A stretch of DNA of 61,525 nt from an uncultured Lachnospiraceae bacterium. GTDB lineage: Bacteria > Bacillota > Clostridia > Lachnospirales > CAG-274. Shown piece after piece: positions 6,198 through 44,313 of this stretch. The stretch is taken from positions 1-61,525 of the forward strand of contig CAZUXS010000001.1 of the NCBI GenBank assembly GCA_964624605.1, given 5' to 3'. Made by a program: the position numbers and the translations under genes. A model generated the notes under the pieces. The model had not been told where the DNA came from. It saw only the letters and a list, made by a program, of their open reading frames with translations, and made no database searches. Position 1 is the stretch's first letter, and each line of letters begins with the position of its first letter.

Positions 6198-6363
6198 TTA
6201 GTTTGGCAATAACCTTTTTTGCATCGTCTATGCAGGCACTGCACATGACACCGAGTTTCATGCTTTTTTCAAGGTCATCAAACCCGTTTGCACCGTTTTG
6301 CAGTGCCGTTTTTATGTCGTTTACCGTAATGCCGTAGCAGTCGCATACAAGCCTGTCTTTCAT
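6181..6363 (-). CDS. BFD-like [2Fe-2S]-binding domain protein (60 aa)
   Basis: The C.C...(N)...C..C pattern is present (CDCYGITVNDI....GVMCSACIDDAKKVI). The ATG overlaps the stop of the upstream LRR gene (ATGA). The last codons lie inside repeat copy A. Confidence 0.7.
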   Translation of the reverse strand: MKDRLVCDCYGITVNDIKTALQNGANGFDDLEKSMKLGVMCSACIDDAKKVIAKLKDCSF

Positions 6364-8591
6364 TTCTTTACCCCCGATTCTATTGCATCAAGAAGTGTTA
6401 TGTTACCGTCACCGTTTATATCGGCGGCTTTTTTATTGAATTTTGAATCACCTATAGGCAGATTTGTTATGTATTTAAGTATGTATGCCATGTCGGCTAT
6501 ATCCGTATTTGAATCCATATTAACATCACCCGTAGTGTAGGGTACTTCTTCAAGAAGTCCGCTGTCATTAAGGCGGTAATACATATCACCCTCAACGGTT
6601 ACAGGAGTTTTGCCGTTCTTTATTCTGGCGTTTATTGTTTTGAACATTTCATCCTCAATTGTCATAACGCTTGCGGGAATGGTGATATCAGTGAGTGCAA
6701 GATTCTGATTATTGTCAACAAAAAATGAACCCTGTGCTATATTTTCACAGGCATCGTTTATTTTTAAACTGCCGCTGTAGCAGGTCGGTATATACCACAG
6801 TGTTTTAAAATCCTTTGAATACAAAACTCCGTCATCGGTGCTGTAGTTGGGATTTGTGTTATTTACTTCAATTTCCTCTATACCTGTGTATACATAGAGT
6901 GCACCCGAAAGATTGTTAGATGACGGGTTGATTATATTATCGGGTAAATCGCCCGTGATTACAAAGTTATCCGGCAAAACAAGTGTTTTAAGGCTCTTGT
7001 TGCGTGAAAATACAAGTTGGTCAAGCTGTGTGATGGTTTCGGGCAGTTCAAAACGGCTGTCCGTCTTTCCTCTCGGGTAACCTACAAGCCTTGTCATATC
7101 GCTTGTGTAAAGCACACCTTCAACGGCGGTGAAATTTTCATTTCCCTCGGCAACCTCGAATGCTGTGAAAGTGTTGTCCTTGCCCATATCGTAAAATACG
7201 TGGTCACCGTAATATGTATTTTCTTCAACGTCATTATCTCCGCCTATGATTTTAACCGTTGAGGGTATTGTGAGCTTTGTGTTTTCAATGCCGTACATGT
7301 GGTCAAAAGCACCGTCGGATATGGTTTCAAGTCCTTCGTTGAGTTCAAGATATTTTATTTTTGAACAAAATTCAAAGGCATAGCAGCCTATTTTTTTCAG
7401 TGTTGAGGGCAGTTGCAACTCCGTAAACCGCATATCGGCTCCCTCGCTGCCGAAGCTTGCAAAGCCTATTTCTTCAACACCTTCCTCAAATGTGAGTTTT
7501 CCGTTTAGTTTGGTGCAGTTATAGAAACAGGTACCACCTACGGTTTTAACATTTCCGGGTATGGTCAAATCTCCTGTGACGGCTGTGTATGCGAATACCC
7601 AATCGCTGAGATAATTGAGAGTTTCCGGAAATACAAGTTCACAGCTAAGTTTGCTGCAACCGTAAAAGCTGCCGTAGCAAATTCTTTCAAGTATAGAATT
7701 GAATTTTACTGATGTTATATTTGTGTTCATAAATGCATAGGCATATATTTGCTTTGTGTTTGCGGGCAATGTGAGTTCACCCGAAAGTGATGAATTCGCA
7801 AATGCCGCACCGCCTATTATTTCAATGCTGTCCGGAAGTGAAACTTTTCCAACATCACATTTATAAAAAGCAAAGGTGTCTATGATTTGTATACCCGAGG
7901 ATATGGTTACGGATGTGGCGGTATTATTCAGATTTTTGAGTACCGTGTTTTTGTCATCTTCTCCGCTGACGGTGGTTATAATTTTTCCGTCATAAAAATT
8001 TGGAACAACAACATCCGTGTCGGTGCCTTTGTAGAAATATAAGGTATTATCCTCGGCTGTCCATTCATCCTCTGTTGTGACTATTTTTGTGGGCGATAAG
8101 GTCATTTTTTTGACATCATCACCGTTTGCGAACGTTACTTCAACCTCGTCCGTGATTTGTATGTTGTTGTCGTAGTATTGATATATGTAGCCGTTATCAT
8201 CCGGACGGGTTAATTCGGTTGTTTCATCGCCTATTGTGAGAGTTGTGCCGTTTGAATAGGATGTGCATTTTATAAGTGCCGCTTTCAGCGTGTTTTCATC
8301 ATCCACATATATGGCAGAGGCGGAAATTGTTTCATCCAATGACAATGCGGATGGAGAAGTTGTTTCATCCAGTAATGCGGATGAGGAGGTTGTTTCATCC
8401 GAATCATTGTATTCAAATGCGGTTATCCTGCCGTTGTTTTTTTCGGATAAATCGGATAAATCGGATAAATCGGATAAATCGGTTTTTACAATCGGTGTCG
8501 GTGCTTCAGGTAATTGCACCGCATATATGCTGTTTGAAAATGCAAAACACAGCAATATGAGTATCGTTGATAATTTTGATAATGTTTTCAT
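6360..8591 (-). CDS. secreted BspA-type leucine-rich-repeat (LRR_5) surface protein with a C-terminal type-I dockerin
   Basis: An N-terminal signal peptide is present (MKTLSKLSTILILLCFAFSNSIYA). Many I....AF..C..L..I.IP..V..IG..AF repeats follow. The C-terminus GDVNMDSNTDIADMAYILKYI...ADINGDGNITLLDAI is a duplicated Ca-binding dockerin segment. Confidence 0.85.
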   Translation of the reverse strand: MKTLSKLSTILILLCFAFSNSIYAVQLPEAPTPIVKTDLSDLSDLSDLSEKNNGRITAFEYNDSDETTSSSALLDETTSPSALSLDETISASAIYVDDENTLKAALIKCTSYSNGTTLTIGDETTELTRPDDNGYIYQYYDNNIQITDEVEVTFANGDDVKKMTLSPTKIVTTEDEWTAEDNTLYFYKGTDTDVVVPNFYDGKIITTVSGEDDKNTVLKNLNNTATSVTISSGIQIIDTFAFYKCDVGKVSLPDSIEIIGGAAFANSSLSGELTLPANTKQIYAYAFMNTNITSVKFNSILERICYGSFYGCSKLSCELVFPETLNYLSDWVFAYTAVTGDLTIPGNVKTVGGTCFYNCTKLNGKLTFEEGVEEIGFASFGSEGADMRFTELQLPSTLKKIGCYAFEFCSKIKYLELNEGLETISDGAFDHMYGIENTKLTIPSTVKIIGGDNDVEENTYYGDHVFYDMGKDNTFTAFEVAEGNENFTAVEGVLYTSDMTRLVGYPRGKTDSRFELPETITQLDQLVFSRNKSLKTLVLPDNFVITGDLPDNIINPSSNNLSGALYVYTGIEEIEVNNTNPNYSTDDGVLYSKDFKTLWYIPTCYSGSLKINDACENIAQGSFFVDNNQNLALTDITIPASVMTIEDEMFKTINARIKNGKTPVTVEGDMYYRLNDSGLLEEVPYTTGDVNMDSNTDIADMAYILKYITNLPIGDSKFNKKAADINGDGNITLLDAIESGVKK
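8444..8482 (-). repeat. 9-bp microsatellite (cggataaat x4) encoding (DLS)4 in the LRR protein
   Basis: Four perfect head-to-tail 9-bp units are read directly. The repeat is in-frame. Confidence 0.9.
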
Positions 8592-17308: not shown

Positions 17309-17494
17309 AATAACACCTCGCTTATTACATATATATTTAAAATTCATTCGTTATTTATAAGTAAATTATAACATCTTACGTGGAAAATAGCAACAAAAAA
17401 TATTTTAAAACTGTGGCAGTAAATGTCAGTAAATTTGAGTTATGATATATTCATCGGATAGATAATCCGAAAAAAATAAAAAGGAGATGGTAAT

Positions 17495-18541
17495 TTGAGC
17501 AAATTTGATTCTAAGAGTTTCAATCCTCAGGCATTTGGTGCCTATGTGGAGAGAATACCTCAGCTCAAGAAAAATGAACTTGTGAGGAGTAAGGCATTGA
17601 GAGGGAACAGTGAAATAAGAAATGCTTTCAGCTCGCAAACGGGTACAGCCTATGCAATATTGCCTATGTATGGTTTGCTTGGCGGTGATGCACTTAACTA
17701 TGACGGTGCAACGGATATTACGGCAACAACAACCGATACTTATGAAAGAGGTGTGGTTGTTGTGGGTAGGGCTAAGGCTTGGCTTGAAAATGACTTTTCG
17801 GAGGATATCACGGCAGGCGGCGGCTTTATGGATAACGTGGCAACACAGGTTGCGGCATATTTTGATGAAGTTGATCAGGATATTTTACTTTCAATATTGA
17901 GTGGTATATTTTCAATGACAGGTAAAGAAAATCTTGAATTTGTAAACAATCATACCTATGATATCACCGCTATCGGTGATGGTACGGTTGAACCCGCAAC
18001 TCTCAACAAAGCAATTCAGCAGGCAGGCGGTGACAACAAAAACAATTTCACAATTGCAATTATGCACTCCGAGGTTGCAACACAGCTTGAAAACCTCAAT
18101 TTGCTTGACTATCTTAAGCAGACGGATAAGGAAGGTATTCAGAGGGATATCGCACTTGCAACATGGAACGGAAGAGCTGTTTTGATTGATGATTCAATGC
18201 CTTATGAAGATGGTGAGGACGGAAAAACAAATTATACCACCTATATACTCGGTACGGGTGCGTTTGACTATGAAAACATAGGTGCAAAAGTGCCTTACGA
18301 AATGGCAAGAAATCCGGTAACAAACGGCGGTCAGGATACACTTTATGTGCGTCAAAGAAAAGTTTACGCACCATTTGGCATAAGCTATGTAAAGGTAAAT
18401 CAGCAGAGTCTTTCACCTACGAATAAGGAGCTTGCCGACGGTGAAAACTGGTCACTTGTAAACAACGGTGAAAAAGAACCCGTTTACATAAACCACAGGA
18501 GTATACCTATAGCCAGAATCATAAGCAAGGGCAGAGCATAA
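17495..18541 (+). CDS. major capsid protein, SPP1 gp13-like
   Basis: The TTG start is preceded by aaaggaga. The motif pattern parallels SPP1 gp13: F.P..F..YV, MPY..L.GD, RG.AW, VA.Y, IDDSMP.E..EDG....Y..G.GA..YE, ARN...G.D.L, PT..ELA.G.NW. Confidence 0.75.
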   Translation: MSKFDSKSFNPQAFGAYVERIPQLKKNELVRSKALRGNSEIRNAFSSQTGTAYAILPMYGLLGGDALNYDGATDITATTTDTYERGVVVVGRAKAWLENDFSEDITAGGGFMDNVATQVAAYFDEVDQDILLSILSGIFSMTGKENLEFVNNHTYDITAIGDGTVEPATLNKAIQQAGGDNKNNFTIAIMHSEVATQLENLNLLDYLKQTDKEGIQRDIALATWNGRAVLIDDSMPYEDGEDGKTNYTTYILGTGAFDYENIGAKVPYEMARNPVTNGGQDTLYVRQRKVYAPFGISYVKVNQQSLSPTNKELADGENWSLVNNGEKEPVYINHRSIPIARIISKGRA

Positions 18542-18554
18542 TTGAGGTGATTGT

Positions 18555-20009
18555 ATGTGGGATTTTCAATTTCCGTTTTCACAAATGCCTCGCATAAACA
18601 ACATCTTGAAAAAAGGTGCCGAGACGAAAGTTACACTTGAAAGTTTTATTTTGAGGGAAGTTGACAGGTTCAAGGCATCACCCGTATTTGCCGATATGCT
18701 GCGTGGGGAGGACTATTACTGCGGCAGACACGATATACTGCACAGGAAAAGGACAGCAATCGGTGAGGGCGGAAAAGTGAGTGTTGTTGATAACCTGCCA
18801 AATAACAGGGTTGTGGATAATCAATACAGAAAACTTGCAGACCAAAAACTTAACTATATATTGGGCAAACCCGTTGTTTTTAGGAGTGACAACAGCGAGT
18901 ATATGGAGCTTATGCAGGATATATTCGGTTCGGACTTTCACAGGACAATAAGAAAAATTGCTTTGGATGCGGTAAACTGTGGCATAGGTTGGATGTTTGT
19001 GAATTACGATGAGGACGGGAAACTCATTTTTAAACGCTTTAAACCCTATGAAATTATACCGAGGTGGGCTGATGATGAAAAAACAAAGCTTGATTATGCC
19101 ATAAGATTTTATACCGCAATTGAGGTTGATGAAAAAGGTGAATCCGAAATACAAAAAGTTGAGTTTTACGATAAAAAGGGTATAAGAAGATATTTTGTGA
19201 ATAACGGCAGACTTGTACCCGATGGCAAAGATTGCAAAACACCGTATTTTTATTGCAGGGAAGAGGAGTTTTGTTGGAATAATATTCCGCTCATACCTTT
19301 TCGCTGCAATGATGAGGAACAGTCATTGCTTAAAAGCGTGAAAACATTGCAGGATGGTCTTAATACTTTGATGAGTAATTTTCAAAATTCAATGGAAGAA
19401 GATGTGCGAAATACCATATTGGTGCTTAAAAATTACGATGGTGAAAATTTGGGAGAGTTCAGGCGCAATTTAAGCACCTACGGAGCTGTGAAAGTGAGGA
19501 GCATAGATGGCTGTGAGGGTGGCGTTGAGGCACTCTCAATACAGGTGAACAGTGAAAATTACAAGGCTGTGATAGAACTTTTTAAGAAGGCAATTATAGA
19601 GAACGGCAGGGGGTACGATGCAAAGGACGACAGACTCTCGGGCAATGCAAATCAGCTAAACATTATGAGTATGTATTCCGATATTGACTTGGATGCAAAT
19701 TCGGTGGAGAGCAGCTTTAAAACGGCTTTTAACAGAATTGTGGATTTTGTGTTGTTGCACTTATACAACAGCGGCAGAGGAGATTTTTCAAGTGAAAAAT
19801 ATGAAATAATATTTAACCGTGATATGTTGATAAGTGAAAGCGAGGTAATCGATAACTGCATAAAGTCGCTGGAAATACTTTCATTTGAAACTGTGGTGGC
19901 ACAGCACCCTTGGGTTGATGATGTGAAAAAAGAGCTTGAAAGAAAAAAGAGAGAAAAGAGTGAGGTAAATAGTGAAGATAGAAAGACTGACGGAGCTTGG
20001 GATGAGTGA
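18555..20009 (+). CDS. phage portal protein, SPP1 gp6 family
   Basis: The 484-aa size fits. The N-terminal ...F..S....DM..GE.YY.G.HDIL.R.R and DN....N....L.DQK..Y..GKP pattern is typical of Phage_prot_Gp6 portals. Confidence 0.8.
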   Translation: MWDFQFPFSQMPRINNILKKGAETKVTLESFILREVDRFKASPVFADMLRGEDYYCGRHDILHRKRTAIGEGGKVSVVDNLPNNRVVDNQYRKLADQKLNYILGKPVVFRSDNSEYMELMQDIFGSDFHRTIRKIALDAVNCGIGWMFVNYDEDGKLIFKRFKPYEIIPRWADDEKTKLDYAIRFYTAIEVDEKGESEIQKVEFYDKKGIRRYFVNNGRLVPDGKDCKTPYFYCREEEFCWNNIPLIPFRCNDEEQSLLKSVKTLQDGLNTLMSNFQNSMEEDVRNTILVLKNYDGENLGEFRRNLSTYGAVKVRSIDGCEGGVEALSIQVNSENYKAVIELFKKAIIENGRGYDAKDDRLSGNANQLNIMSMYSDIDLDANSVESSFKTAFNRIVDFVLLHLYNSGRGDFSSEKYEIIFNRDMLISESEVIDNCIKSLEILSFETVVAQHPWVDDVKKELERKKREKSEVNSEDRKTDGAWDE

Positions 20010-20433
20010 GGAAAATGCTAAGCTTGTTATTGAGGAGCTGTCAAAGGAAGAAGCGGAAAAATCCGAAGCGGTAAATGATTTTGAGGCGGAAAAGGCAGCT
20101 ATCGTAAAGAAATATGAGGAAGATATAAAAAGCATAAAAATTGATAATGAAGTGGAAAAGGCACTCACAAAGGCAGGGGCAAAAAACATAAAGGCTGTAC
20201 GAGCCCTGCTTGACCTTGAAAATGCGGAAATGAACGAAAACGGAATTGTAGGTTTGAGTGAGAGCATTAAAAAGCTCAAAACAGGTAAAGATACGGAGTT
20301 TTTGTTTGAAAAAACGGGATTTAAAGGCGTGAGTGTGGGTGAGAGTACGCACAGGGGTGAAGTGAATACCGATAATATGAACTATAGTCAGCTTTGTGCA
20401 TACTTGGAAGAAAATCCGGATGTTATTTTATAA
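19972..20433 (+). CDS. phage scaffolding protein (GP20 family)
   Basis: The N-terminus MKIERLTELGMSEENAKLVIEE is followed by a Glu/Lys-rich coiled coil. The GTG start overlaps the portal 3' end. Confidence 0.65.
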   Translation: MKIERLTELGMSEENAKLVIEELSKEEAEKSEAVNDFEAEKAAIVKKYEEDIKSIKIDNEVEKALTKAGAKNIKAVRALLDLENAEMNENGIVGLSESIKKLKTGKDTEFLFEKTGFKGVSVGESTHRGEVNTDNMNYSQLCAYLEENPDVIL

Positions 20434-20444
20434 GGAGGATTACT

Positions 20445-20648
20445 ATGGCTAAAAGCACGGAAAATGAAAAGACAGCGGAAACTGTTGCAACAAAGAGTGA
20501 AAGGCGTTTTGAAAAATCACAGCTTTGCGAAAGCAAAAAGTTTGCAAAGCACAGATATGTTATGGATGCGCTTTTAAGTGACGGTGTAACATATACAATT
20601 GAAGAAGCCGAAAAGCTTTTAAATGAATATATTAAGAAGGAGGTTTGA
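20445..20648 (+). CDS. hypothetical phage protein (67 aa)
   Basis: A strong RBS, taaggagg, precedes the ATG. No family was recognised. Confidence 0.5.
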   Translation: MAKSTENEKTAETVATKSERRFEKSQLCESKKFAKHRYVMDALLSDGVTYTIEEAEKLLNEYIKKEV

Positions 20649-20653
20649 TATAT

Positions 20654-21979
20654 ATGGCATTGGGCGGAGGTAATTTTTCGGTACAAAATAAGGTGTTACC
20701 GGGCAGCTATATAAATTTTATAACAACGGCAAGTGCAAGTACCGTTTTTGCCGAAAGAGGCACGGGCGCAATAATTATGCCTATGGTTTGGGGCGAAGTG
20801 GGCACTGTTATTGAAGTTACACAGGAGGATTTTGAAAGGAATTGTCCTAAAATTTTCGGTTATCAATATACGGATGATGAAATGATGTGTATAAGAGATT
20901 TCTTTAAATACGGCAAGACATTACTTGTCGGAAGATTGAACGCAAACGGTAAAAAAGCCGGCAATATACTTGCAGAGGCTTTATATACGGGCAGTGCGGG
21001 TAATAAGATTTCAACCTATATGAGTCCCGATGTGGATGACGAAGAATATTTTAATGTTTACACATATTTTGACGGTGATTTGGTTGACAGCCAATACATA
21101 AACAGTTGGGATGGACTCAAAGACAATGATTATGTAAAGTGGAAGAAAAACGGTAATCTTGTAAAAAACGGTCCTTATATGTTGGAGGGTGGTACGGATG
21201 GAACAACGTCGGTTGCTCAGGTTTCGACTTTCCTTGAAAATATTGAGGCGTACAGCATAAACACAATAGCTGTGGACAGCAGTGACGAGGTCACAATGGG
21301 TATGCTTGTTTCATTTGTTAAAAGAATGAGAGATGAAAAGGGTGTTAAGCTTCAGGCTGTTGTGTACGGCAATAAAAAATATGACTATGAGGGCGTTGTT
21401 TGTGTGCTTAACAAGTTCAGCCTTACGGGCGATTTCACGGATGAGAGTGTTGCTCATAAGGGCATATACTGGGTGAGCGGTGCTGTTGCGGGATGTGCGA
21501 TAAATCGTTCGCTTACAAACAAGACGTATAACGGAGAGTACACAGTATATACGGCTTACACACAAAATGAACTTGAAACGGCTTTAAATGAAGGTAATTT
21601 TGTTTTCCATAAGGTTGGTGACGATGTGAGGGTGTTGCTTGATTATAACAGCCTCGTAACTTTCACACCTGAAAAGAATGAATATTTCAGAGATAATCAG
21701 ACGGTGAGAATTTGTGACCAGATTGCAACGGATATTGCATCTATATTCAACAATTCCTATTTGGGACTTGTTCCGAATGACAGTGCGGGCAGAATAAGCC
21801 TTTGGAGTGATATCGTGAATCATCACAAAAATTTGCAACAGCTCAGAGCACTTGATGATTTTGATGAAGAAGATGTCAGTGTTGAATCGGGCGAGAGTAA
21901 AAACAGTGTAGTTGTGTATGATGCGGTTATGCCTGTGAATGCTATGGCTAAACTGTATATGACAGTGACGGTAAACTAA
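20654..21979 (+). CDS. contractile tail sheath protein (XkdK-like)
   Basis: MALGGGNFSVQNKVLPGSYINF is the characteristic sheath N-terminus. The 441-aa size fits, and RBS aaggagg is present. Confidence 0.85.
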   Translation: MALGGGNFSVQNKVLPGSYINFITTASASTVFAERGTGAIIMPMVWGEVGTVIEVTQEDFERNCPKIFGYQYTDDEMMCIRDFFKYGKTLLVGRLNANGKKAGNILAEALYTGSAGNKISTYMSPDVDDEEYFNVYTYFDGDLVDSQYINSWDGLKDNDYVKWKKNGNLVKNGPYMLEGGTDGTTSVAQVSTFLENIEAYSINTIAVDSSDEVTMGMLVSFVKRMRDEKGVKLQAVVYGNKKYDYEGVVCVLNKFSLTGDFTDESVAHKGIYWVSGAVAGCAINRSLTNKTYNGEYTVYTAYTQNELETALNEGNFVFHKVGDDVRVLLDYNSLVTFTPEKNEYFRDNQTVRICDQIATDIASIFNNSYLGLVPNDSAGRISLWSDIVNHHKNLQQLRALDDFDEEDVSVESGESKNSVVVYDAVMPVNAMAKLYMTVTVN

Positions 21980-21991
21980 GGGGGTTATTGA

Positions 21992-22465
21992 ATGAGTGCA
22001 TCTGTAATGAAAGCTAAAGATACCGTGAGTGCAAAGCTTGCGGAATGTTATGTGAAAATTGACGGCAGCAGATATAATTTTATGCAGGCTATCAATTTGG
22101 AGGCCAAGATTGAAAAAACAAAGGTTGAGGTACCTATACTCGGGCAGACCGGTAAAGGTAATAAGGCAGGCGGTTGGAAGGGCAGTGGTACGGCTAAGTT
22201 CCACTACAACAGCTCAGTATTCAGAAAATTGCTTGAAAAGTACAAAAAGACGGGCGAGGATATTTATTTTGAAATTCAGGTTACAAACAATGATCCGACA
22301 TCTTCCGCAGGCAGTCAAAGTGTTGTGCTTGTGGATTGCAACATTGATGGCGGCATAATTGCAAAATTTGATGCCGAGAGTGATTATTTGGACGAGGAAA
22401 TGAGTTTTTCATTTGAGGATTTTGTTGTGGCACAGTCATTTACAAATCTTTCGGGTATGATTTAA
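21992..22465 (+). CDS. tail tube protein (XkdM-like)
   Basis: The 157-aa protein has the pattern ...AKLAECYVKIDG.RYNFMQAINLEAK.EKTK.EVPILG....GNK..GWKGSG.AKFHYN typical of the XkdM family. Confidence 0.8.
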   Translation: MSASVMKAKDTVSAKLAECYVKIDGSRYNFMQAINLEAKIEKTKVEVPILGQTGKGNKAGGWKGSGTAKFHYNSSVFRKLLEKYKKTGEDIYFEIQVTNNDPTSSAGSQSVVLVDCNIDGGIIAKFDAESDYLDEEMSFSFEDFVVAQSFTNLSGMI

Positions 22466-22477
22466 TCGGAGGTATAT

Positions 22478-22885
22478 ATGAGCAATTTGAATTTATTTTT
22501 GAAAAGCAACAAAAAGCAGAGGGAGAGTGCTGTTTACAAGGCAACGTCATCGCTTACCGATGAGAGCGGTGTGCCGCTTGATTGGGTGATAAGACCCGTT
22601 ACAACGGAGGAAAATGAAGATATAAGAGAAAGCTCAATGCGTGAAAGGGACGGAAGATATACTCTTAACGTGAGTGCATATACGGCAAAGCTTCTTGCCG
22701 CCTCCGTGCAGGAACCTAACCTTTATGATGCTTCTTTGCAGGATAGCTACGGAGTGAAAACACCCGAAGCGCTTTTAAAGGCTATGCTTGATAATCCGGG
22801 TGAGTACAACGCACTTGCGGATTTTGTGAAAAAGCTTAACAGCTTTCCAACTTTTGTTGAGAGTGTGGAACAGGCAAAAAAATGA
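22478..22885 (+). CDS. tail assembly chaperone (XkdN-like)
   Basis: The position directly after the tube gene, the size (135 aa), and an acidic N-terminal half fit. The ORF ends at an A7 slippery run. Confidence 0.65.
   Translation: MSNLNLFLKSNKKQRESAVYKATSSLTDESGVPLDWVIRPVTTEENEDIRESSMRERDGRYTLNVSAYTAKLLAASVQEPNLYDASLQDSYGVKTPEALLKAMLDNPGEYNALADFVKKLNSFPTFVESVEQAKK
22876..22882 (+). promoter_or_regulatory. putative -1 programmed ribosomal frameshift site (A AAA AAA)
   Basis: The heptamer A_AAA_AAA sits immediately before the TGA of the chaperone ORF. The -1 frame stays open for a further 46 codons, to 23022. Confidence 0.55.
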
Positions 22886-23022
22886 TAAGGGGCGGCGACA
22901 GTGAGGCGGTTTATGCCTATTACTGTTTTCACAAATTCGGGATGCCGCCCTCCCGATTTGCAGAAATGGGAGAAAGAGAGAAGGCTTTTATTGCGGCGGC
23001 GATAGAGCTTAAAGAAAAATAA
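22882..23022 (+). CDS. -1 frame extension of the tail assembly chaperone (G/GT-type long form)
   Basis: The open -1 frame reads MIRGGDSEAVYAYYCFHKFGMPPSRFAEMGEREKAFIAAAIELKEK. There is no independent RBS. The arrangement matches the conserved chaperone frameshift of tailed phages. Confidence 0.5.
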   Translation: MIRGGDSEAVYAYYCFHKFGMPPSRFAEMGEREKAFIAAAIELKEK

Positions 23023-23064
23023 GGGTGCGGAGAAAACTCCGCACTCAAAATCGGAGGTGATAGG

Positions 23065-23706
23065 GTGTATCAATTTTGGCTTGGAGATATTCTTTTACCT
23101 GTTGCGCCCGAAAAAGTGAAAATAAATACGGGGTCGCAAAACAGAGAATTGGTGCTTGTTGATGGCAGAGAGATAAATGTGCTTAAGGGGGCAAAGCTCA
23201 GAACCGTTGAATTTGATGCGCTTTTGCCGAATATACAGTATCCTTTTGCACAGTACAAGAATGGTTTTCAAAATGCCGATTATTACAGAAATGCCATAGA
23301 GGAGCTTAAGAATGAAAATAAGGTGATATCTTTTGTGATAACCAGAAAAATGGATATTAAGGTGTTTGAATATACGGATATAAGCTGTACACTTGAAAGC
23401 TATTATATCACGGAGAGTTGCGAAAACGGTTTTGATGTTGTGATGCACCTTGTGCTTAAGGAGTACAGGCAGTATGGGGCAAAGTTTTATGATGAAAACA
23501 ACGGGGTTACTAAAGAGAGAGAAGCGGATAATGCACCACAGATAACGGGGAAAACATATACGGTGCAAAAGGGTGACAGTCTTTGGAAGATTGCAAAAAT
23601 GTATTACGGTGACGGCAGCAGGTGGCAAGAAATTTACAGTGCAAACAGTGACAAAATTTCAAATCCGAACAGGATAAGTGTGGGTATGGTGCTCACCGTA
23701 AATTAA
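23065..23706 (+). CDS. LysM-domain tail/baseplate protein (XkdP-like)
   Basis: A C-terminal LysM domain is present (YTVQKGDSLWKIAKMYYGDGSRWQEIYSANSDKISNPNRISVGMVLTV). The GTG start follows ggaggtg. Confidence 0.8.
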   Translation: MYQFWLGDILLPVAPEKVKINTGSQNRELVLVDGREINVLKGAKLRTVEFDALLPNIQYPFAQYKNGFQNADYYRNAIEELKNENKVISFVITRKMDIKVFEYTDISCTLESYYITESCENGFDVVMHLVLKEYRQYGAKFYDENNGVTKEREADNAPQITGKTYTVQKGDSLWKIAKMYYGDGSRWQEIYSANSDKISNPNRISVGMVLTVN

Positions 23707-23717
23707 GGGGGAATTGC

Positions 23718-24965
23718 ATGAACGATGGTGAACTTGCACGTATTTTTAATTTTGCCATACTGAATTTTTTATCGGCAACCTGTGATGTGAAACCAATTAT
23801 GGTTGATGATGAAACGGAGGATGAGAAAAGCCGTAATCCGTCAGATTTAACATCGGATGTTGAAAGCATCATGCAAAAGTATGCCAAAGAGAATGGAAAT
23901 AAAAGCCTTTACAATTATAAAGACGAGAATTTTTATAATGAAAACAAAGCCGATATATATAATTACGAGTTGGGAAGTACGGATATATATGACAATAAAT
24001 CTATTGATAACGGAAATGAAGGACTTGTAAATTATTATATCGCTTTAAGCGGTGCGAGTAATTTTGAAAAATCGGCAGAGAATGGCAAAATAAACCGAAA
24101 TGTCTACAGTGGAGAATATACAAATATTTTTTCGTTGGGTGGAGATTTTGGCAGTGCTTATGAAAACAACTTGGAAAAAAATCGTAATAACGGGGTAAAT
24201 GATAGTGTTTACAAAAAAGGGTACGGGAACGATTCGTCAATATACAAAGATGGTTATTACGGCAAAAATTACCGCTTGCCAAATGGTTGCAATGAGGAAA
24301 ATTACGACATAAGCAACGGTGTGTATAATTCTGTGTACGGTTCTGAAAACAGTTCAAATGAGAATGTATACGGTATTGGCTACGGTTTTAACAATAGCAA
24401 TCATATTTTTGACAAATCCGAAAAATGTGATATTTACGGCTTTGAGGAAAGTGAATATCATGATTCGGAAGCTTTGGCGAAGTACGGTGAATACGGAAAT
24501 ACTCGCTATATTTCGGAAAATACGGTAGTAAAAGAAAATGACAAATTTATACCATTTCAAAATTACGGTACCGAAAACGATTTCAATATTTTCGGAAAAT
24601 ATACGGATTTGAGTTTTGCCGGTGAAAATTCGGAGAGTGATTATGCTTTGAATACCACGGGTGATTATTTGAACAAAAACGATGTGTTTAATATCAATAA
24701 GGGAGTTTCCGAAAATGATGAAAGCTATGTCGATTACGACATTGACGGAAGTGAGAAAAAAAGTGAACTTTTTTCAAAAATGCAAAAGCTTACAAACGAA
24801 ACAAACAACTACAGCAATTCGGGAGGAAGCATAAATATAAATATGGGTGGAGTTACTCAAAATTTTGCCTCCGGAGAAGGAGCAGATAATATTATGGATG
24901 TGTTTGTGGAAAGTTTGAAAAAGGGGTTGAACGGTTGCGGCAGCAGATATTTGGAGGCGAATTGA
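23718..24965 (+). CDS. Asn/Tyr/Gly/Glu-rich low-complexity protein (415 aa), unknown function
   Basis: A strong RBS, aaggggg, precedes the ATG, and the stop abuts the next gene. The composition is dominated by N, Y, G, S, E and D, with degenerate Y-x-x-N-type repeats. The non-repetitive C-terminus reads ...GGVTQNFASGEGADNIMDVFVESLKKGL. Confidence 0.7.
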   Translation: MNDGELARIFNFAILNFLSATCDVKPIMVDDETEDEKSRNPSDLTSDVESIMQKYAKENGNKSLYNYKDENFYNENKADIYNYELGSTDIYDNKSIDNGNEGLVNYYIALSGASNFEKSAENGKINRNVYSGEYTNIFSLGGDFGSAYENNLEKNRNNGVNDSVYKKGYGNDSSIYKDGYYGKNYRLPNGCNEENYDISNGVYNSVYGSENSSNENVYGIGYGFNNSNHIFDKSEKCDIYGFEESEYHDSEALAKYGEYGNTRYISENTVVKENDKFIPFQNYGTENDFNIFGKYTDLSFAGENSESDYALNTTGDYLNKNDVFNINKGVSENDESYVDYDIDGSEKKSELFSKMQKLTNETNNYSNSGGSININMGGVTQNFASGEGADNIMDVFVESLKKGLNGCGSRYLEAN

Positions 24966-24966
24966 T

Positions 24967-25929
24967 ATGGCACTTGAAGTTTGGATAACGGGTTCAAACG
25001 GTAAATTTATGCCCGAAATGGTGAATGAAGTAAGTTGGACTACGGAGCTTTTCGGTGCGGGGATGCTCGAATTTAAGGTTATAAAAGAAGGCTCGATATC
25101 GTTCAAAGAGGGTGACAAGGTAGAGATGAGTTTTGACGGCAACAGCCTTTTTTGCGGCAGGGTGTTTGAAAAAAAGAGAACACAGCTCGGGGTGATATCG
25201 GTTGTTGCTTACGACCAAATGAGATATTTGCGTAACAAGGACAGCTACACATTTATAAACAAAACTGCGGCACAGATTGTGAACATGATATGCACCGATT
25301 ATAAGCTGCCCATAGGAAGCATAGCGCAAACGGGATTTGTGATTCCCTCACGTATAGAGGATAATTCCACTTTGTTTGACATAATTTACACAGCACTGTC
25401 GCTTACAAAAAATGCCACAGGCAATGAGTTTTTATTGTATGACGATTTAGGAAAAATTTCATTGCAACCCATATCCTATTTTGACACAAATCTTTTGGTG
25501 GATAATGAAACAAGCATAGGCTTTGATTATTCCACAACAATAGACAGTGATGTGTATAACAAGGTGAAGCTCATACATACCACATCACAAAACAAGGTTG
25601 TGACGGATACCGTATATGCGGACAGTGACGCAGATAAGATAAATGAATGGGGTGTGCTGCAATATTTCAGGCACATTGACGGAAATATAGACGGAAATAT
25701 GCTTGTAAAAAATATATTGAATACGTATGACAGAAAAAACAGAAAGCTTGTTATCACAACCATGGGTAACAGATATTTGAGAGCAGGCAGCAGTGTTTAT
25801 GTGAAGCTGGATATAGGCGATTTTGTGCTTGATGACAAAATGAGGGTGAAAAAGTGTGTGCATACATTCAGTGAAAATCAGCATTTTGCGGCATTAACAC
25901 TCAGTGGCGGACAACTTAATTCAAAGTAG
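24967..25929 (+). CDS. baseplate hub / late-control-D-like protein (XkdQ/YqbQ family)
   Basis: The 320-aa size and N-terminus MALEVWITGSNGK....V..VSWTTE..G....LEF fit. The position before the baseplate wedge genes also fits. Confidence 0.7.
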   Translation: MALEVWITGSNGKFMPEMVNEVSWTTELFGAGMLEFKVIKEGSISFKEGDKVEMSFDGNSLFCGRVFEKKRTQLGVISVVAYDQMRYLRNKDSYTFINKTAAQIVNMICTDYKLPIGSIAQTGFVIPSRIEDNSTLFDIIYTALSLTKNATGNEFLLYDDLGKISLQPISYFDTNLLVDNETSIGFDYSTTIDSDVYNKVKLIHTTSQNKVVTDTVYADSDADKINEWGVLQYFRHIDGNIDGNMLVKNILNTYDRKNRKLVITTMGNRYLRAGSSVYVKLDIGDFVLDDKMRVKKCVHTFSENQHFAALTLSGGQLNSK

Positions 25930-25944
25930 AAAGGACAGGGGTAT

Positions 25945-27015
25945 ATGTTTGAAAATATGACTTATGAAAAGCTTATGGAAAGCTCACTTGCAAGGGTGAA
26001 AACAGATGTGGATAAAAGACAGGGATCTGTGATTTACGATGCACTTGCACCTGCTTGTGCAGAGCTTGCACAGCTTTACATAGAGCTTGACAACGTATTG
26101 AAAGAGGGGTTTGCGGACACGGCAAGCAGAGAGTATCTCATTTTGAGGGCAAAGGAGAGAGGTATTACACCAAATGAAGCCACAGCCGCAGTGCTGCGTG
26201 GTGTATTTGACGGTGAAGTGCCTATAGGCAGCCGATTTAATTTGGGTGAGCTTAATTATGAAGTCACGGAAAAAATAAAGGATTATGAATACAAGCTGAC
26301 TTGTGAAACAACGGGTAGTGTGGGCAATAAATATTTCGGAACTCTTACGCCTATAAATTATATACAGGGCATAACAAGTGCGGCAATAACGGAACTTTTG
26401 ATACCGGGGACGGATGAAGAGGATACGGAGACATTCAGACAGAGATACTTTGACAGCATAAACAATTTATATTTCGGCGGAAATGTTGCCGATTACAAAA
26501 GACTGCTCAAAACAATACAAGGTGTGGGACAGGTCAGGATTGAACGTGTCTGGAACGGTGGCGGCACCGTAAAGGTGATTATGACGGACAGTGACAATAA
26601 TATACCAACGGATGAACTGCTTTCCGAGGTAAAGGAAAAGCTTGATCCGGCGGAATATGAGGGCTGTGGTATGGGACTTGTGCCCATTGGACATAGTGTA
26701 AAGGTTGTTGCACCCGAAGTGACGTATGTGGAAGTATATTTTGACGCTCACCTTGATGGCAGAACAATTGAGGATATAAAATACGAGGCGTTTGAAATAA
26801 TATGTGATTTTTTCGATGAAGTAAATGCCGGTTGGAGTGACGGAGAAACTGTAATCTACAGTTCCGATATTCATTCAAAGCTTATGGAAATTGAGGGTTT
26901 GAAAAATATAAGCGGTCTTACAATTAATGAAAAATTGCACTTTACACTTGCAAACAATCATTTGATAGAGTGCAAAAACGTGTATATAAGTGAGGAGGAT
27001 TGGCTTGGCGTATAA
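25945..27015 (+). CDS. baseplate J / gp47-family protein (XkdT-like)
   Basis: The N-terminus MFENMTYEKLMESSLARV....DKRQGSVIYDALAP.A.ELAQLY..LD......FADTA.REYL...A.ERGI is typical of baseplate J-like proteins. Confidence 0.8.
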   Translation: MFENMTYEKLMESSLARVKTDVDKRQGSVIYDALAPACAELAQLYIELDNVLKEGFADTASREYLILRAKERGITPNEATAAVLRGVFDGEVPIGSRFNLGELNYEVTEKIKDYEYKLTCETTGSVGNKYFGTLTPINYIQGITSAAITELLIPGTDEEDTETFRQRYFDSINNLYFGGNVADYKRLLKTIQGVGQVRIERVWNGGGTVKVIMTDSDNNIPTDELLSEVKEKLDPAEYEGCGMGLVPIGHSVKVVAPEVTYVEVYFDAHLDGRTIEDIKYEAFEIICDFFDEVNAGWSDGETVIYSSDIHSKLMEIEGLKNISGLTINEKLHFTLANNHLIECKNVYISEEDWLGV

Positions 27016-27829
27016 TAATGTTTTTGGGTTGGAATATCCCGATGAGAATGACTATTACGACATAAAAGTAATAAACGAAAATATAAGCAAGGTTGCAACA
27101 CAGGCGGCAAAAATGAATACGGTTGTGGTTGCCGCCTATGACACTGCACAGGATATGGCAAAAAATGCGGATTTTGTATGCCCCGAAAATGAGGCAGGCA
27201 CAACATTGAACAAGGCATTGCTTTCGGTGAACAAGGGCGGCACGCTCGTGTTGCTTGACGGCACATATAATATAAATGAAAGTGTTGTTTTGAATAAACC
27301 GATTAAAGTTGTGGGTGATGGAAGAGGTACTGTGCTTAAGCAACTTGATGACAGCGGTGAAACATTCAATATTTTTATTGTGGACTGCGAAGATGTGTAT
27401 ATAGGGAATATGACAATGAAAGATAACAAAAAAAGTACATCACCTAAGTGGCTTGTGTTTGTGAAAAAAGATGGAGCAGTTATAGAAAATGTGAAATTTC
27501 ATTTTGACTACAGTGTTGAAAATGATGTATCAATGATACATTTCATAAAGGATTGCACAGACGGCATTGTGAGATATTGCTGTTTTGCGAGAAGCTTTGA
27601 CACAAGTGATATGGATGGGGAGTTTTACGATGTTACAATAGCGGGAAATGCATTCTGCGGTGTGATACATGGCAACAGGCGATTTGAAAATGAAACCTCA
27701 CCCTCCGATGTAAGGCTGAGTTTTTCATATAACAGCAGCTATGTTTACACAGCTGTATCCGGACAAAAAACAGCTGTGTATGTTGCAAACAAGCTTGCAC
27801 ATTCAATTAATAATAAACAGGAGGCATAA
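27005..27829 (+). CDS. putative tail fibre / receptor-binding protein with a small beta-helix-like domain
   Basis: The N-terminus AYNNVFGLEYPDENDYYDIKVINENISKV resembles the conserved fibre N-terminal motif of Firmicute phages. The following segment, TLVLLDGTYNINESVVLNKPIKVVGDGRGTVL, is pectate-lyase-fold-like. The start is uncertain (GTG at 26990 or TTG at 27005). Confidence 0.5.
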   Translation: MAYNNVFGLEYPDENDYYDIKVINENISKVATQAAKMNTVVVAAYDTAQDMAKNADFVCPENEAGTTLNKALLSVNKGGTLVLLDGTYNINESVVLNKPIKVVGDGRGTVLKQLDDSGETFNIFIVDCEDVYIGNMTMKDNKKSTSPKWLVFVKKDGAVIENVKFHFDYSVENDVSMIHFIKDCTDGIVRYCCFARSFDTSDMDGEFYDVTIAGNAFCGVIHGNRRFENETSPSDVRLSFSYNSSYVYTAVSGQKTAVYVANKLAHSINNKQEA

Positions 27830-27830
27830 T

Positions 27831-28142
27831 ATGAGTGAGGCGGTTGATTTGATAAAGGAAGCGGCAGTTGAGGCTGTGGAAGCGGAAAAACCTATGCAGG
27901 TGGTTTTCGGAGTGGTTACATCGGCACAGCCACTTGAAATACAGACGGAGCAAAAACTTATACTTCCGGAAGAAGTTTTATCTCTTGCAGACCCCGTGAG
28001 AGATAAAACGATAGTGATACATAGGGGTTTAAAGGAGGGTGAAAAGGTTATGATGCAGAGGATACAAGGTGGTCAACGATACATTGTTATGGATAGAGTT
28101 GACGATAAGGTCATGGATGGTGATGTGACTGATGACATATAA
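27831..28142 (+). CDS. DUF2577 baseplate protein (XkdR-like)
   Basis: The pattern ...P..V.FG.V.SA.PL.I...Q...L....L.L.......I.RGL..G..V...R.QGGQ.Y.V.DRV parallels XkdR. RBS caggagg is present. Confidence 0.75.
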   Translation: MSEAVDLIKEAAVEAVEAEKPMQVVFGVVTSAQPLEIQTEQKLILPEEVLSLADPVRDKTIVIHRGLKEGEKVMMQRIQGGQRYIVMDRVDDKVMDGDVTDDI

Positions 28143-28467
28143 TATTGACTTCAACAACTCAGTCATAAGCGGCTACTGCGATGATAAGGCGGAAATGAGA
28201 CAGTTCATTTACAAAACACTGATGACACAGCGATACAGATATTTGATATATGACAGGCGTTACGGTGTGGAGATTGATGACCTTTTCGGTTTGCCTTCAA
28301 ACTATGTTTGTGCGGTTTTGGGCAGACGTATAAGCAGTGCATTGGAACAGGATGACAGGGTTAAGTCTGTGACCGATTTTGTGTTTTCGATAGAGAGAAA
28401 TTCCGTAAAAGCAAATTTCAAGGTAAATACCGTTTACGGAGAAATAGAGGCAAATTTTTCTCTGTAG
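28132..28467 (+). CDS. DUF2634 baseplate protein (XkdS / gp25-related)
   Basis: The pattern ...G.CDDK.EM.Q.IYK.L.T.RY.Y.IY...YG.E...LFG is typical of the XkdS family. Confidence 0.7.
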   Translation: MTYNIDFNNSVISGYCDDKAEMRQFIYKTLMTQRYRYLIYDRRYGVEIDDLFGLPSNYVCAVLGRRISSALEQDDRVKSVTDFVFSIERNSVKANFKVNTVYGEIEANFSL

Positions 28468-28488
28468 ACGGCAGAATGGAGGTTTATT

Positions 28489-28728
28489 ATGAAGAAAAAA
28501 ATTGCAGTTGGTTCAGAGGTAAGAGAAATTTTGACAAAAATTGTGAGGGGACAGGATATTGAGCAGACAACCACAACCGATGAAGATTTTGAAGGCAACA
28601 CAAGGAGTAAAACAGTGACTAAATCCGTGCCTATTTCGGCAAAGGTGAGGGCGGCAAAAATACTCCTTGATGATGAAAACGGTGTTGAGGATTGCACCGA
28701 AAGTGTAACTATAGTGGAGGATATATGA
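28489..28728 (+). CDS. hypothetical phage protein (79 aa); weak resemblance to the C-terminal end of small terminase subunits
   Basis: RBS ggaggt is present. The ...ISAKVRAAKILLD.. segment resembles the ..K.KA.E.L.K.. tail of Terminase_2-type TerS proteins. No DNA-binding N-terminal domain is present. Confidence 0.35.
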   Translation: MKKKIAVGSEVREILTKIVRGQDIEQTTTTDEDFEGNTRSKTVTKSVPISAKVRAAKILLDDENGVEDCTESVTIVEDI

Positions 28729-28729
28729 T

Positions 28730-29278
28730 ATGGCTGATGATAAGGGCACATTCGGTGTTAAGCTTATAGACTATCTTCCGCCGGTGACGGCTGATATAAG
28801 TGATTTTAAGGAACTTTGCAAGGCTGAGCAGATTATATTTGATGCCTGTGTTTCAGGCTGTGACAGGGTGAAAAATGAATACAGCGTTTATTGTGCCGAT
28901 GAATACGGACTTGCCAAATATGAAGCTATGTTTTCACTGCCGACATCGGGAACAACAGAAATACGGCGTCGGCGTATACTTGACAGATTGAATGGAATAA
29001 AGGAAAGTGTAATAAATTATGTGTCAACACTTTATGGTAATGCTATAAAGGCATATAGCTTCAGTTCCGAGGACTATGTGCTCAGGATAAAGGTGGATAT
29101 GGATAAATACGAATATCTTGAAAGCATAAATACCTTGCTTGAGGAGCTTGTGCCTTGCAATGTGGTGATAAAAACGGAGCTTGACTACAATACGCATAAG
29201 CTGCTTAAAAAATATACACATAAGGAACTTTCAAAGCTCAAACACGGCGAGATAAAGGACTATCACGATGAAAGTTGA
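28730..29278 (+). CDS. DUF2313 tail protein (XkdU / YmfQ-like)
   Basis: YLPPV.....DFKELCKAEQ..FD and EIRRRRILDRLNG are typical of DUF2313. Confidence 0.7.
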   Translation: MADDKGTFGVKLIDYLPPVTADISDFKELCKAEQIIFDACVSGCDRVKNEYSVYCADEYGLAKYEAMFSLPTSGTTEIRRRRILDRLNGIKESVINYVSTLYGNAIKAYSFSSEDYVLRIKVDMDKYEYLESINTLLEELVPCNVVIKTELDYNTHKLLKKYTHKELSKLKHGEIKDYHDES

Positions 29279-30506
29279 GAGTATTAAGAAAATTGTGGGC
29301 GGCGGTTATGATGATTACTGGCACTATAAAGGGCGATACAGGGTATGCAAGGGCAGCCGTGCCAGTAAAAAAAGTAAAACAACCGCTATCAATTTCATAG
29401 TGAGGATAATGAAATATCCGCAGGCAAATTTGCTTGTTGTGAGAAAGGTTTTTGCCACGCTCAAAGACAGCTGCTACACGGAGCTTTGCTGGGCAATAGA
29501 CAGACTTGGGGTGAGAAAATACTTTAAATGCAGACTCTCACCCCTTGAAATAGAATACATTCCCACGGGACAGAAAATATATTTCAGAGGTCTTGATGAC
29601 CCTTTGAAAATTACTTCCATAACAGTTAAAACGGGTTGCCTGTGTTGGCTGTGGATAGAGGAGGCTTATGAAATTTCGGATGAGGGTGATTTTAATATGC
29701 TTGATGAAAGTATAAGAGGATACGTGCCCGACGGACTTTTCAAGCAGATAACGGTTACTCTCAATCCGTGGAATGAAAGACACTGGATAAAAAGACGATT
29801 CTTTGATGTAAGTTCGGATGATATACTGGCTAAAAGTACGGATTACCGCTGCAATGAATTTTTGGATGCTGCCGATTTGAGGGTGTTTGAGGATATGAAG
29901 AAAAACAACCCGAGAAGATATCAAGTTGCGGGGCTTGGAAATTGGGGTATATCCGAGGGTTTGGTTTACGAAAATTGGCACGAGGAGGATTTCAATATTG
30001 ATGAGGTCAAAAAAATATCGGGTGCAAAAACGGTATTCGGCTTGGATTTCGGTTATGTAAATGACCCTACGGCACTTTTTTGCGGTGTGGCAGACGAAAA
30101 AGAAAAAAAGCTTTATGTGTTTGATGAGCTTTACGAAAAGGCATTGAGCAATGAAGAAATATACGAAAGAATATTCAAAATGGGATATTCAAAGGAAAAA
30201 ATAAGAGCCGACTGCGCCGAACCCAAAAGCATAGACCGCTTGCGTGATTTGGGCTTGAAGGGCATAAGGGCGGCAAGAAAGGGCAAGGACAGTATACTAA
30301 ACGGCATTGACTATATACAGGATTACGAAATTGTAATTTCAAAAAAATGCAGCAATTTCTCAAATGAAATAAGCAACTATACATGGGATAAGGATAAAGA
30401 GGGAAGAACAATAAATAAACCATTGGACGAGTTTAATCATCTTATGGATGCAATGCGATATGGCATGGAGGAATTGATACGTGGTGAAAATTTGAGTTTT
30501 GAATAA
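29268..30506 (+). CDS. terminase large subunit, PBSX family (atypical Walker A)
   Basis: The Walker B-like motif WLWIEEA and the nuclease motifs FGLDFGY.NDPTA and NHLMDAMRYG are present. The Walker A position reads GSRASKKS where GGRGSGKS would be expected. Confidence 0.8.
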   Translation: MKVESIKKIVGGGYDDYWHYKGRYRVCKGSRASKKSKTTAINFIVRIMKYPQANLLVVRKVFATLKDSCYTELCWAIDRLGVRKYFKCRLSPLEIEYIPTGQKIYFRGLDDPLKITSITVKTGCLCWLWIEEAYEISDEGDFNMLDESIRGYVPDGLFKQITVTLNPWNERHWIKRRFFDVSSDDILAKSTDYRCNEFLDAADLRVFEDMKKNNPRRYQVAGLGNWGISEGLVYENWHEEDFNIDEVKKISGAKTVFGLDFGYVNDPTALFCGVADEKEKKLYVFDELYEKALSNEEIYERIFKMGYSKEKIRADCAEPKSIDRLRDLGLKGIRAARKGKDSILNGIDYIQDYEIVISKKCSNFSNEISNYTWDKDKEGRTINKPLDEFNHLMDAMRYGMEELIRGENLSFE

Positions 30507-30524: not shown

Positions 30525-30583
30525 GAAAAAAGGGGCTGTACGTAAATGTGCATTACACATTTACGACAGCCCCATAATTTTTT
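30525..30583. terminator. strong bidirectional rho-independent terminator
   Basis: A stem of about 18 bp, ggggctgtacgtaaatgtg / cacatttacgacagcccc, is flanked by A6 and T6 runs between the convergent terminase and hydrogenase genes. Confidence 0.85.
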
Positions 30584-44236: not shown

Positions 44237-44313
44237 ATTTAAATTTTTGTTGAGAAACAAAGGATTTGAAAAAATTCTCTTTGGAGTTTTAGTTTTTTGA
44301 TTATTTTTAGTAA

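Follow-up and report, generated by a model that had tools for sequence, protein, structure and literature searches.

The window analyzed here is a whole NCBI contig of 61,525 bp (CAZUXS010000001.1, assembly GCA_964624605.1), and at 17495-30506 on its forward (+) strand it carries a single co-directional, packed operon of 17 genes plus one -1 frameshift product, with head, contractile tail, and large terminase genes as its content. As read from these genes, the cassette is predicted to encode a scaffold-assembled capsid, a packaging motor, and a contractile tail with its baseplate. We judge it probable, rather than firmly established, that the cassette is an anciently domesticated particle locus of the gene transfer agent (GTA)/PBSX-like kind, derived from a phiCT453A/PBSX-like temperate myophage, and what it would most likely build is GTA-like particles. 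New here are the lineage-specific permutation of a constrained morphogenetic operon, a tape measure of which the C-terminal domain alone is left, a small terminase that is either truncated or unlinked, and a family-specific short receptor-binding protein; our literature searches returned no description of a permuted operon, reduced tape measure, truncated/unlinked small terminase, or short receptor-binding protein of this sort.

The original prediction, made from the DNA letters, had described 18 co-directional, packed open reading frames (ORFs) and named their likely products, and had proposed a host-retained particle locus rather than a decaying prophage. Pfam and PHROGs profile matches, by which we assigned the genes, bear out both the ORFs and the products where they had been placed, and the proposal is supported, with the runnable tests coming out in its favor. 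The non-canonical order of the genes had gone unremarked.

Inheritance and selection

Relatives with the window's arrangement were recovered on three independent metagenome contigs: L106 (10 kb) and L018, both from JGI sample 3300035510, and L010, which comes from a Logan assembly and spans the tube gene to the large terminase gene. All three share the window's unusual order, and the junction of C_GCAxxG and rmlD genes with the cassette is common to L106 and L018, so that the synteny expected of a retained locus is present. Against L106, synonymous divergence (dS) was 0.24-0.52 for the cassette genes and 0.34 and 0.42 for the adjacent host genes, and because the cassette's dS matches that of the flanking host genes, we read its inheritance as vertical. 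The ratio of nonsynonymous to synonymous divergence (dN/dS) in the same comparison was 0.03-0.12 for the cassette and 0.02-0.09 for the host genes, with only the protein p415 (dN/dS 0.24) and the small protein "e" evolving faster. In the comparison with L010, synonymous sites are saturated; the ORFs are all intact, with dN/dS at 0.07-0.26 or less. Every gene is constrained, with the large terminase (TerL), the portal, the major capsid protein (MCP), and the remnant of the small terminase (TerS) among the most constrained. These patterns fit a long-resident, vertically inherited locus under selection, not a decaying prophage, and no larger, intact prophage version was found at the locus, whose flanks are housekeeping genes.

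One difference at the left boundary sets L106 apart: genes for a PIN-domain toxin and a 77-amino-acid (aa) partner separate rmlD from the conserved promoter (L106 1465-2116), an insertion absent from the window and from L018. L106 remains nearly identical over the 106 bp ahead of the MCP gene. Elsewhere, a metagenome TerL scan returned no window-type relative, the GTDB species representatives held no close relative (the best XkdQ match being 43% identical), and exact-protein look-ups of the portal and of protein P0205 gave no match.

A permuted gene order

The genes of the window run MCP-portal-scaffold-e-sheath-tube-N-P-TMP'-Q-T-fibre-R-S-TerS'-U-TerL, where single capitals are Xkd proteins, TMP is the tape measure protein, and primes denote remnants. 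The canonical order, taken from phiCT453A and from nearly all of the ~150 related viral and metagenomic contigs that we fetched, is TerS-TerL-portal-(gp7 region)-scaffold-MCP-(neck genes)-sheath-tube-XkdN-TMP-P-Q-R-S-T-U-fibre. Of the canonical adjacencies, only 5 of 16 survive in the window, with strand and tight spacing unchanged for every gene and with all rearrangement breakpoints falling exactly between genes, and the window's order was seen in no sampled phage. An assembly artefact as the source of the scrambling was rejected, since the window type is seen alike in four independent assemblies and a second arrangement (type A, below) in several long-read genomes. Integron-like gene cassettes were also ruled out, given the tight gaps or overlaps between genes and the lack of any repeated attC-like sequence.

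A reduced tape measure and a truncated small terminase

The original prediction had listed a tape measure among the missing genes, and this holds for a full-length one; p415 (23718-24965, +), however, carries a tape-measure C-terminal domain. The body of p415 is of low complexity, rich in N, S, G, E, Y, and D, and variable in length among orthologues, and is followed by a domain at approximately residues 346-411 that is conserved in orthologues of 258, 402, and 548 aa; its conserved last ~60 residues include SININMGGVTQNF and, further on, IMDVFVESLKKGL. A hidden Markov model (HMM) of this domain matches the extreme C-termini of two canonical tape measures (L004 and L008, both phrog_1068), and a profile-profile comparison by hhalign gave a probability of 91% and an E-value of 1e-6 over 62 columns. 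The full protein has no Pfam or PHROGs match, and its relatives number only 12 among 1.8e9 representative proteins. By these profile comparisons, p415 is a remodelled tape measure in which a spacer of low complexity precedes the one surviving part, the C-terminal domain.

That the cassette holds no full small terminase had also been predicted, and what it has instead is p79 (28489-28728, +), which matches the C-terminal half of Terminase_2-type TerS. It aligns with residues ~62-118 of the 146-aa Terminase_2 TerS that lies directly upstream of TerL in canonical contigs (BLASTP 4e-7), and itself has no Pfam or PHROGs match. A longer p79 ORF is impossible because the gap to the upstream XkdS gene is only 21 nt. 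The L010 orthologue is 72% identical, with a dN/dS of 0.08. By this alignment, p79 is the C-terminal half of TerS, comprising the oligomerization core and tail, with the N-terminal helix-turn-helix part absent. This parallels the TerS proteins without DNA binding described for RcGTA and FpGTA (PMC12946183).

Related compact cassettes with other gene orders

Using XkdQ, MCP, and TerL as queries, we found related cassettes of 11-14 kb with host-gene flanks, in genomes labelled Anaerotignaceae, "Eubacterium sp.", and other gut Clostridia. Beyond the window order (type W), at least three further permutations exist among them. Type A (L011, L014-17, L120) runs portal-scaffold-MCP-3 neck genes-e-sheath-tube-S-T-U-fibre-N-TerL-Q-R; type B (L019) runs …tube-fibre-N-TerL-Q-R-S-T; and type C (L021, L189, L195) runs portal-Q-R-S-T-U-N-P-TMP'-fibre-MCP-neck genes-scaffold-e-sheath-tube, with no TerL. 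In eight neighbor-joining protein trees, types W, A, B, and C grouped together against the sampled phages in 8/8, and the clade had bootstrap values of 91-92 for MCP, XkdQ, and baseplate J (BpJ). High MCP and TerL identity between cassettes was rejected as a mark of special relatedness, since both proteins are ~66-73% identical even to those of bona fide phages. Compact clusters with a short tape measure also occur outside this clade: L083, L056, L007 (tape measure remnant between TerL and portal).

Stand-alone TerS-TerL pairs were found among host genes on human-gut contigs (L108-L118; e.g., L112 9595-11236), with a TerS of 134 aa, and because these two genes have a locus of their own in related lineages, the particle system can evidently be split. 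Downstream of these pairs lie an Amidase_3-SLH protein and a 936-aa unknown protein, and the N-terminal helix-turn-helix of the stand-alone TerS looks degenerate in a by-eye comparison with canonical TerS. Two 40-kb contigs (L149, L150; 70-80x coverage), which may be phage or another permuted cassette, show yet another order: a TerS-like gene, TerL, portal, ~4 kb of unknown ORFs, XkdP, XkdQ, scaffold, and MCP. In addition, the 90% identity cluster of the type C MCP P0087 includes 125-aa members annotated from Eubacterium sp. CAG:274 on at least 1000 contigs, which may be pieces of MCP or an artefact of the clustering.

Tentatively, and with rather more doubt than we attach to the domestication of the cassette itself, we extend the reading to the family: a Lachnospirales clade may hold an ancient contractile-tailed GTA whose operon, once free from phage recombination, escaped the nearly universal constraint on the order of structural genes. 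Each lineage would then have rearranged the genes one at a time and moved some of them to other, co-regulated loci, while the ruler shrank to a disordered spacer with the C-terminal domain and the TerS came to lack DNA recognition. Such a clade would serve as a natural experiment on the conservation of phage gene order and would be a major, unrecognized means by which DNA is exchanged among anaerobic communities of guts and digesters.

The upstream element and control

Upstream of the MCP gene lies a control region with a tandem half-site element, GGCAGTAAATGTCAGTAAAT, of 10-bp period (17415-17451, +), which overlaps a promoter-like ATGTCA-N17-TATATT with a TG-extended -10. A promoter scan recovers this element, which occurs once on the contig; no second locus with it is visible there. 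It is kept in L018 and L106, where the remaining intergenic region is not conserved. Between the element and the ribosome-binding site, and just before the latter, the 5' untranslated region holds the inverted repeat TCGGAT-AGATA-ATCCGA (17454-17470, +), with a stem invariant among the window, L018, and L106 and the sole change in the loop; this could be an operator or an RNA hairpin. A sigma-54 promoter at TGGCAG was considered and rejected, the -12 GC element being absent by eye.

The tandem site type of the window element is GGCAGTAAATGTCA, and tandem ATGTCA sites likewise precede type A and type C cassettes and the stand-alone TerS-TerL loci, although such sites are rare (8 in ~5 Mb searched). 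The type A site, AAATGTCACTAAATGTCAC, stands in a place equivalent to that of the window's element, and an 18-mer, TATGTCACGA(A/T)ATGTCAT, lies upstream of both the stand-alone TerS-TerL loci and the type C structural cluster. These shared sites suggest that the family's loci are partly dispersed and under common regulation, in the manner of GTAs. As TATGTCACGANATGTCAT, the 18-mer is also found in 35-47-kb IMG/VR phage contigs (L190-L194, L197; one contig has two copies), where it precedes a replication operon of P-loop ATPase, single-stranded-DNA-binding-like protein, and primase-helicase, which argues that the element is inherited phage circuitry. Just upstream in these phage contigs sits a helix-turn-helix gene, a candidate regulator. 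The window-type promoter pattern itself had no match in IMG/VR.

Remaining genes of the operon

All genes of the operon lie on the + strand, with intergenic gaps mostly of 0-22 nt or overlaps and a maximum of 42 nt. Its head module opens with the SPP1 gp13-like MCP (17495-18541; phrog_247, 3.6e-89), which is 71% identical to the phiCT453A MCP and has a dN/dS of 0.03-0.07, followed by the SPP1 gp6-like portal (18555-20009; PF05133, 2.9e-84) and a short head scaffold of at most 153 aa with an uncertain start codon (19972-20433; phrog_194; PF06810, 5e-16, over profile positions 54-160 of 170). TerL, of the PBSX XtmB family, is at the operon's distal end (29268-30506; Terminase_3, 4.5e-58; Terminase_3C, 1.4e-26), with its Walker/ATPase and nuclease motifs intact and its residues 1-177 being 88-89% identical to L010. 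No prohead protease is present in the cassette, as had been predicted; this is not a defect, because the scaffold-using head module of phiCT453A has none annotated either, and we rejected it as one.

The tail module begins with "e", a conserved protein of 67 aa (20445-20648, the ORF being open from 20394; phrog_966, 1.8e-15), whose homologues sit directly 5' of the sheath gene in other cassettes and in canonical phage contigs and whose L106 orthologue is also called at 67 aa. The contractile sheath (20645-21979) matches four sheath Pfam domains, and the tail tube is DUF2001/XkdM-like (21992-22465; PF09393, 3.4e-52). Next comes an XkdN-type tail assembly chaperone (22478-22885, stop at 22883-22885; PF08890, 2e-34) with a -1 extension to 23022 that matches PHROGs families; the slippery run of this programmed frameshift is GCAAAAAAA, and both slippery site and open -1 frame are kept in all cassettes and canonical phages. 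Frameshifting chaperone pairs of this kind handle the tape measure. An XkdP-like baseplate- or hub-associated protein with a C-terminal LysM (23065-23706; LysM, 5e-14; phrog_380, 7e-59) precedes p415, which is followed by the XkdQ/YqbQ-like baseplate hub (24967-25929; PF24032, 2.5e-90) and the XkdT-like baseplate J (25945-27015; PF04865, 1.4e-50). Beyond the putative receptor-binding protein p279 lie a predicted spike or plug component, XkdR-like (DUF2577; 27831-28142, ORF open from 27741; PF10844, 1.1e-20), the XkdS/gp25-like sheath initiator (28132-28467; PF10934, 7e-27), and, after p79, the XkdU/Mu gp48-like baseplate protein (28730-29278; PF10076, 2e-13).

The short putative receptor-binding protein p279 (26990-27829) has homologues of 259-280 aa in every compact cassette type examined and no match among 50,697 phage genomes. 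Its match to PF12708 is weak, that of the L083 homologue being better (2.5e-5), and weakly suggests a pectate-lyase-like beta-helix. Together with XkdU (45% identical to L010, dN/dS about 0.25), p279 (33% identical, dN/dS 0.26) is the fastest evolving of the genes in that comparison. Single-sequence AlphaFold models of p279 (pLDDT 38) and p415 (pLDDT 31) were not used for fold searches.

Boundaries and neighboring genes

The original prediction placed the block between housekeeping genes, without direct repeats and closed by a strong terminator, and flank annotation agrees. The cassette has rmlD on its left and an [FeFe]-hydrogenase operon on its right; the left flank encodes ThiI, Ogt, a MATE pump, a CtpB-type protease, a C_GCAxxG protein, and rmlD, and the right flank the [FeFe]-hydrogenase and an operon with PP2C and HydS-like genes, then panBCD. 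No attachment (att)-like repeats flank the cassette, and no tRNA genes or Rfam matches were found around it. A long, bidirectional intrinsic terminator hairpin (30532-30583), read by eye and missed by an automatic scan, lies between the convergent TerL and hydrogenase genes. Among the contig ORFs examined there was, again as predicted, no integrase, repressor, or replication gene. Outside the cassette, contig ORFs were unmatched by the relatives' ORFs, and the Pfam families of the larger ORFs examined were host-type only.

The host is probably a dockerin-encoding, uncultured Clostridia bacterium, named homologues of the flank proteins coming only from Lachnospirales metagenome-assembled genomes (MAGs), to which the hydrogenase homologues also point. 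The type I dockerin at the C-terminus of a BspA-type leucine-rich-repeat protein (6360-8591, -) suggests a cellulosome-producing host. Farther along, a 699-aa protein with TIR, TPR, and DUF6273 domains (46061-48160, -) stands beside a DUF4428 protein in a low-GC stretch (0.32), its neighbors being 45118-45765 (-) and an AT-rich gap at 44237-45117; this stretch could be a defense-type island. Within the gap, a 24-aa stretch (44325-44396) resembles a small ORF in the ~1-kb TerL-XkdQ spacer of the type A cassette L011.

How particles might be made, and alternative explanations

If the cassette does build GTA-like particles, the operon would be switched on by a regulator at the conserved tandem ATGTCA site, and proheads would be filled by headful packaging without a sequence-specific start. 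Packaging would be non-specific, with host DNA as cargo, because the TerS lacks a helix-turn-helix domain. Tails would be built on the short tape measure, with neck, tail-terminator, and lysis proteins supplied from other loci, and cells would lyse via unlinked lysis genes, releasing particles that act like GTAs or PBSX particles.

Several observations weigh against this interpretation. No adaptor, stopper, tail-terminator, holin, or endolysin gene was found among the ORFs examined on the 61.5-kb contig, much as the original prediction had it, and because these functions are missing, the cassette alone cannot make a joined, released particle; this insufficiency is the main weakness of reading it as a GTA. 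The three neck genes are moreover kept in types A, B, and C and not in the window type. Damage is seen in some copies of type A: the L014 portal, cut down to 221 aa, is abutted by a DDE transposase/insertion sequence (IS) (1-737), and L017 has its tube gene broken into two parts of 31 aa and 77 aa (4808-5281). Such copies could be non-producer variants in otherwise conserved populations. As for the trees, the canonical phages in them were sampled by similarity to the window, and clade bootstrap was 16-57 in the other 5/8. The right junction is not conserved in L023, whose hydrogenase is 83% identical and is followed by glmM and glmS. Base composition of the cassette is close to that of its flanks (GC 0.40 vs 0.42), whereas its codon usage is similar and not identical to that of the host (relative synonymous codon usage r = 0.87, against r = 0.98 between halves of the host gene set) and is thus not wholly host-like. 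Finally, the cassette is linked to Coprocola of the Anaerotignaceae (below) by taxonomy and size only.

That the locus is a non-functional prophage remnant whose ORFs have not yet decayed is the least credible explanation, and we think it very improbable. Neck, lysis, full TerS, and full-length tape measure genes are indeed absent from the block, the gene order is scrambled, and some related copies have an IS insertion or a split gene. Yet the ORFs remain intact at saturated dS to L010 with dN/dS well below 1, dN/dS against L106 equals that of neighboring housekeeping genes, the breakpoints fall exactly between genes with tight spacing kept, and the programmed frameshift site is preserved; simple decay is contradicted by these selection data and is strongly disfavored. 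A helper-dependent or anti-phage role would have the cassette silent until, on infection or induction of a related phage, that phage's regulator acts on ATGTCA, whereupon cassette products such as the TerS without a helix-turn-helix would hijack or poison the phage's assembly and packaging, a satellite-like form of interference that lacks mobility. Since the 18-mer stands ahead of the phage replication operon, the promoter of the cassette could be recognized by a phage factor; dominant-negative action by the truncated TerS is conceivable, and a helper phage could supply neck and lysis functions. Set against this are 17 intact, constrained genes including a full tail, far beyond what interference needs, the lack of integrase, att site, or mobility together with co-divergence with the chromosome, and the fact that no known defense-system architecture was noted (PADLOC was not run), and we consider such a role improbable.

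More serious is a killing function, PBSX-like or tailocin-like, in which the contractile tail would kill competitors, DNA-filled heads would be a by-product as in PBSX, and no genes would be transferred. In its favor, the cassette has a full set of tail and baseplate genes with homology to PBSX XkdK-XkdU, and the specificity parts p279 and XkdU evolve fastest, as a receptor arms race would give. The head and TerS remnant genes are nevertheless strongly constrained, whereas pure tailocins dropped their head genes, and the loss of the TerS DNA-binding domain is explained no better by killing than by gene transfer. We regard killing as unlikely, and as the main alternative function for the same kind of particle, one that sequence alone does not separate from gene transfer. 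Domestication of the locus for making GTA-like or PBSX-like particles is thus the explanation we favor.

To our knowledge, functional GTA-like elements outside Alphaproteobacteria are very few. If particles are made, the cassette would represent a contractile-tailed Gram-positive GTA lineage common in gut and cellulolytic anaerobes, which could explain part of the unexplained host DNA in virus-like-particle (VLP) fractions. Independent of function, differently permuted and equally constrained operons allow one to test whether phage head and tail gene order is needed for assembly or is kept by modular recombination. In the same way, the mini tape measure of 258-548 aa offers a handle for testing whether it sets tail length, and a TerS without a helix-turn-helix one on how packaging starts without DNA recognition.

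Comparison with known systems

The closest isolated phage by MCP is phiCT453A (NC_028991), which has the same TerL, portal, scaffold, sheath, tube, XkdN, and XkdP-XkdU families. It is a functional temperate phage of 42 kb in canonical order, with a full TerS, an SPP1 gp7-like minor head protein, two adaptors, Neck1, a 667-aa tape measure, a 721-aa fibre, holin, amidase, and a replication module. The cassette, at 13 kb and with housekeeping flanks, is not an intact myophage of this type (~40 kb with all modules).

PBSX of Bacillus subtilis is a chromosomal, non-propagating element whose head and contractile-tail particles package host DNA (PMC12946183). It shares with the cassette homologues of the XkdK sheath, the XkdM tube, XkdN, XkdP (LysM), XkdQ-U, and an XtmB-type TerL. 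PBSX spans ~28 kb in canonical order, with its own regulators xre and xpf, a full TerS (XtmA), the connectors XkdH, I, and J, a long XkdO tape measure, and a lysis cassette. The 13-kb cassette differs in being permuted, in the absence of the PBSX regulators, connectors, and lysis genes, and in having only remnants of TerS and the tape measure; strictly speaking, it does not belong with the PBSX elements. Head genes have been lost from pure tailocins, R-pyocins and diffocin among them, and the cassette is not a tailocin because it retains MCP, portal, scaffold, and TerL under constraint. Nor is it a satellite of the cf-PICI type, because it has no integrase or att site, carries a full tail module, and co-diverges with the chromosome.

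RcGTA and the FpGTA of Faecalibacterium are likewise domesticated head-tail clusters without lysogeny or replication genes, with vertical inheritance, a TerS without DNA binding, and accessory loci elsewhere, and gut Clostridia are reported to package host DNA in a GTA-like way on a wide scale (PMC12946183). The two GTAs are siphovirus-like (RcGTA) and podovirus-like (FpGTA), with no sequence relation to the cassette, which differs in its contractile tail, reduced tape measure, and lineage-variable order. The gene order of RcGTA is canonical. A 2026 preprint on Coprocola, of the Anaerotignaceae, whose DNA is reported to fill VLPs, describes GTA-like carriage of host DNA in these VLPs and, as a candidate, a ~14-kb terminase and structural cluster that includes a small terminase and no integration or replication genes, with a separate lysis cluster (bioRxiv 10.64898/2026.07.08.737213); its main text makes no mention of a sheath or contractile tail. 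One source of P0011, a type A relative, is likewise labelled Anaerotignaceae. Like GTAs, the cassette sets phage head, tail, and packaging genes in a chromosome without integration, immunity, or replication modules and shows the vertical inheritance and purifying selection that mark such elements.

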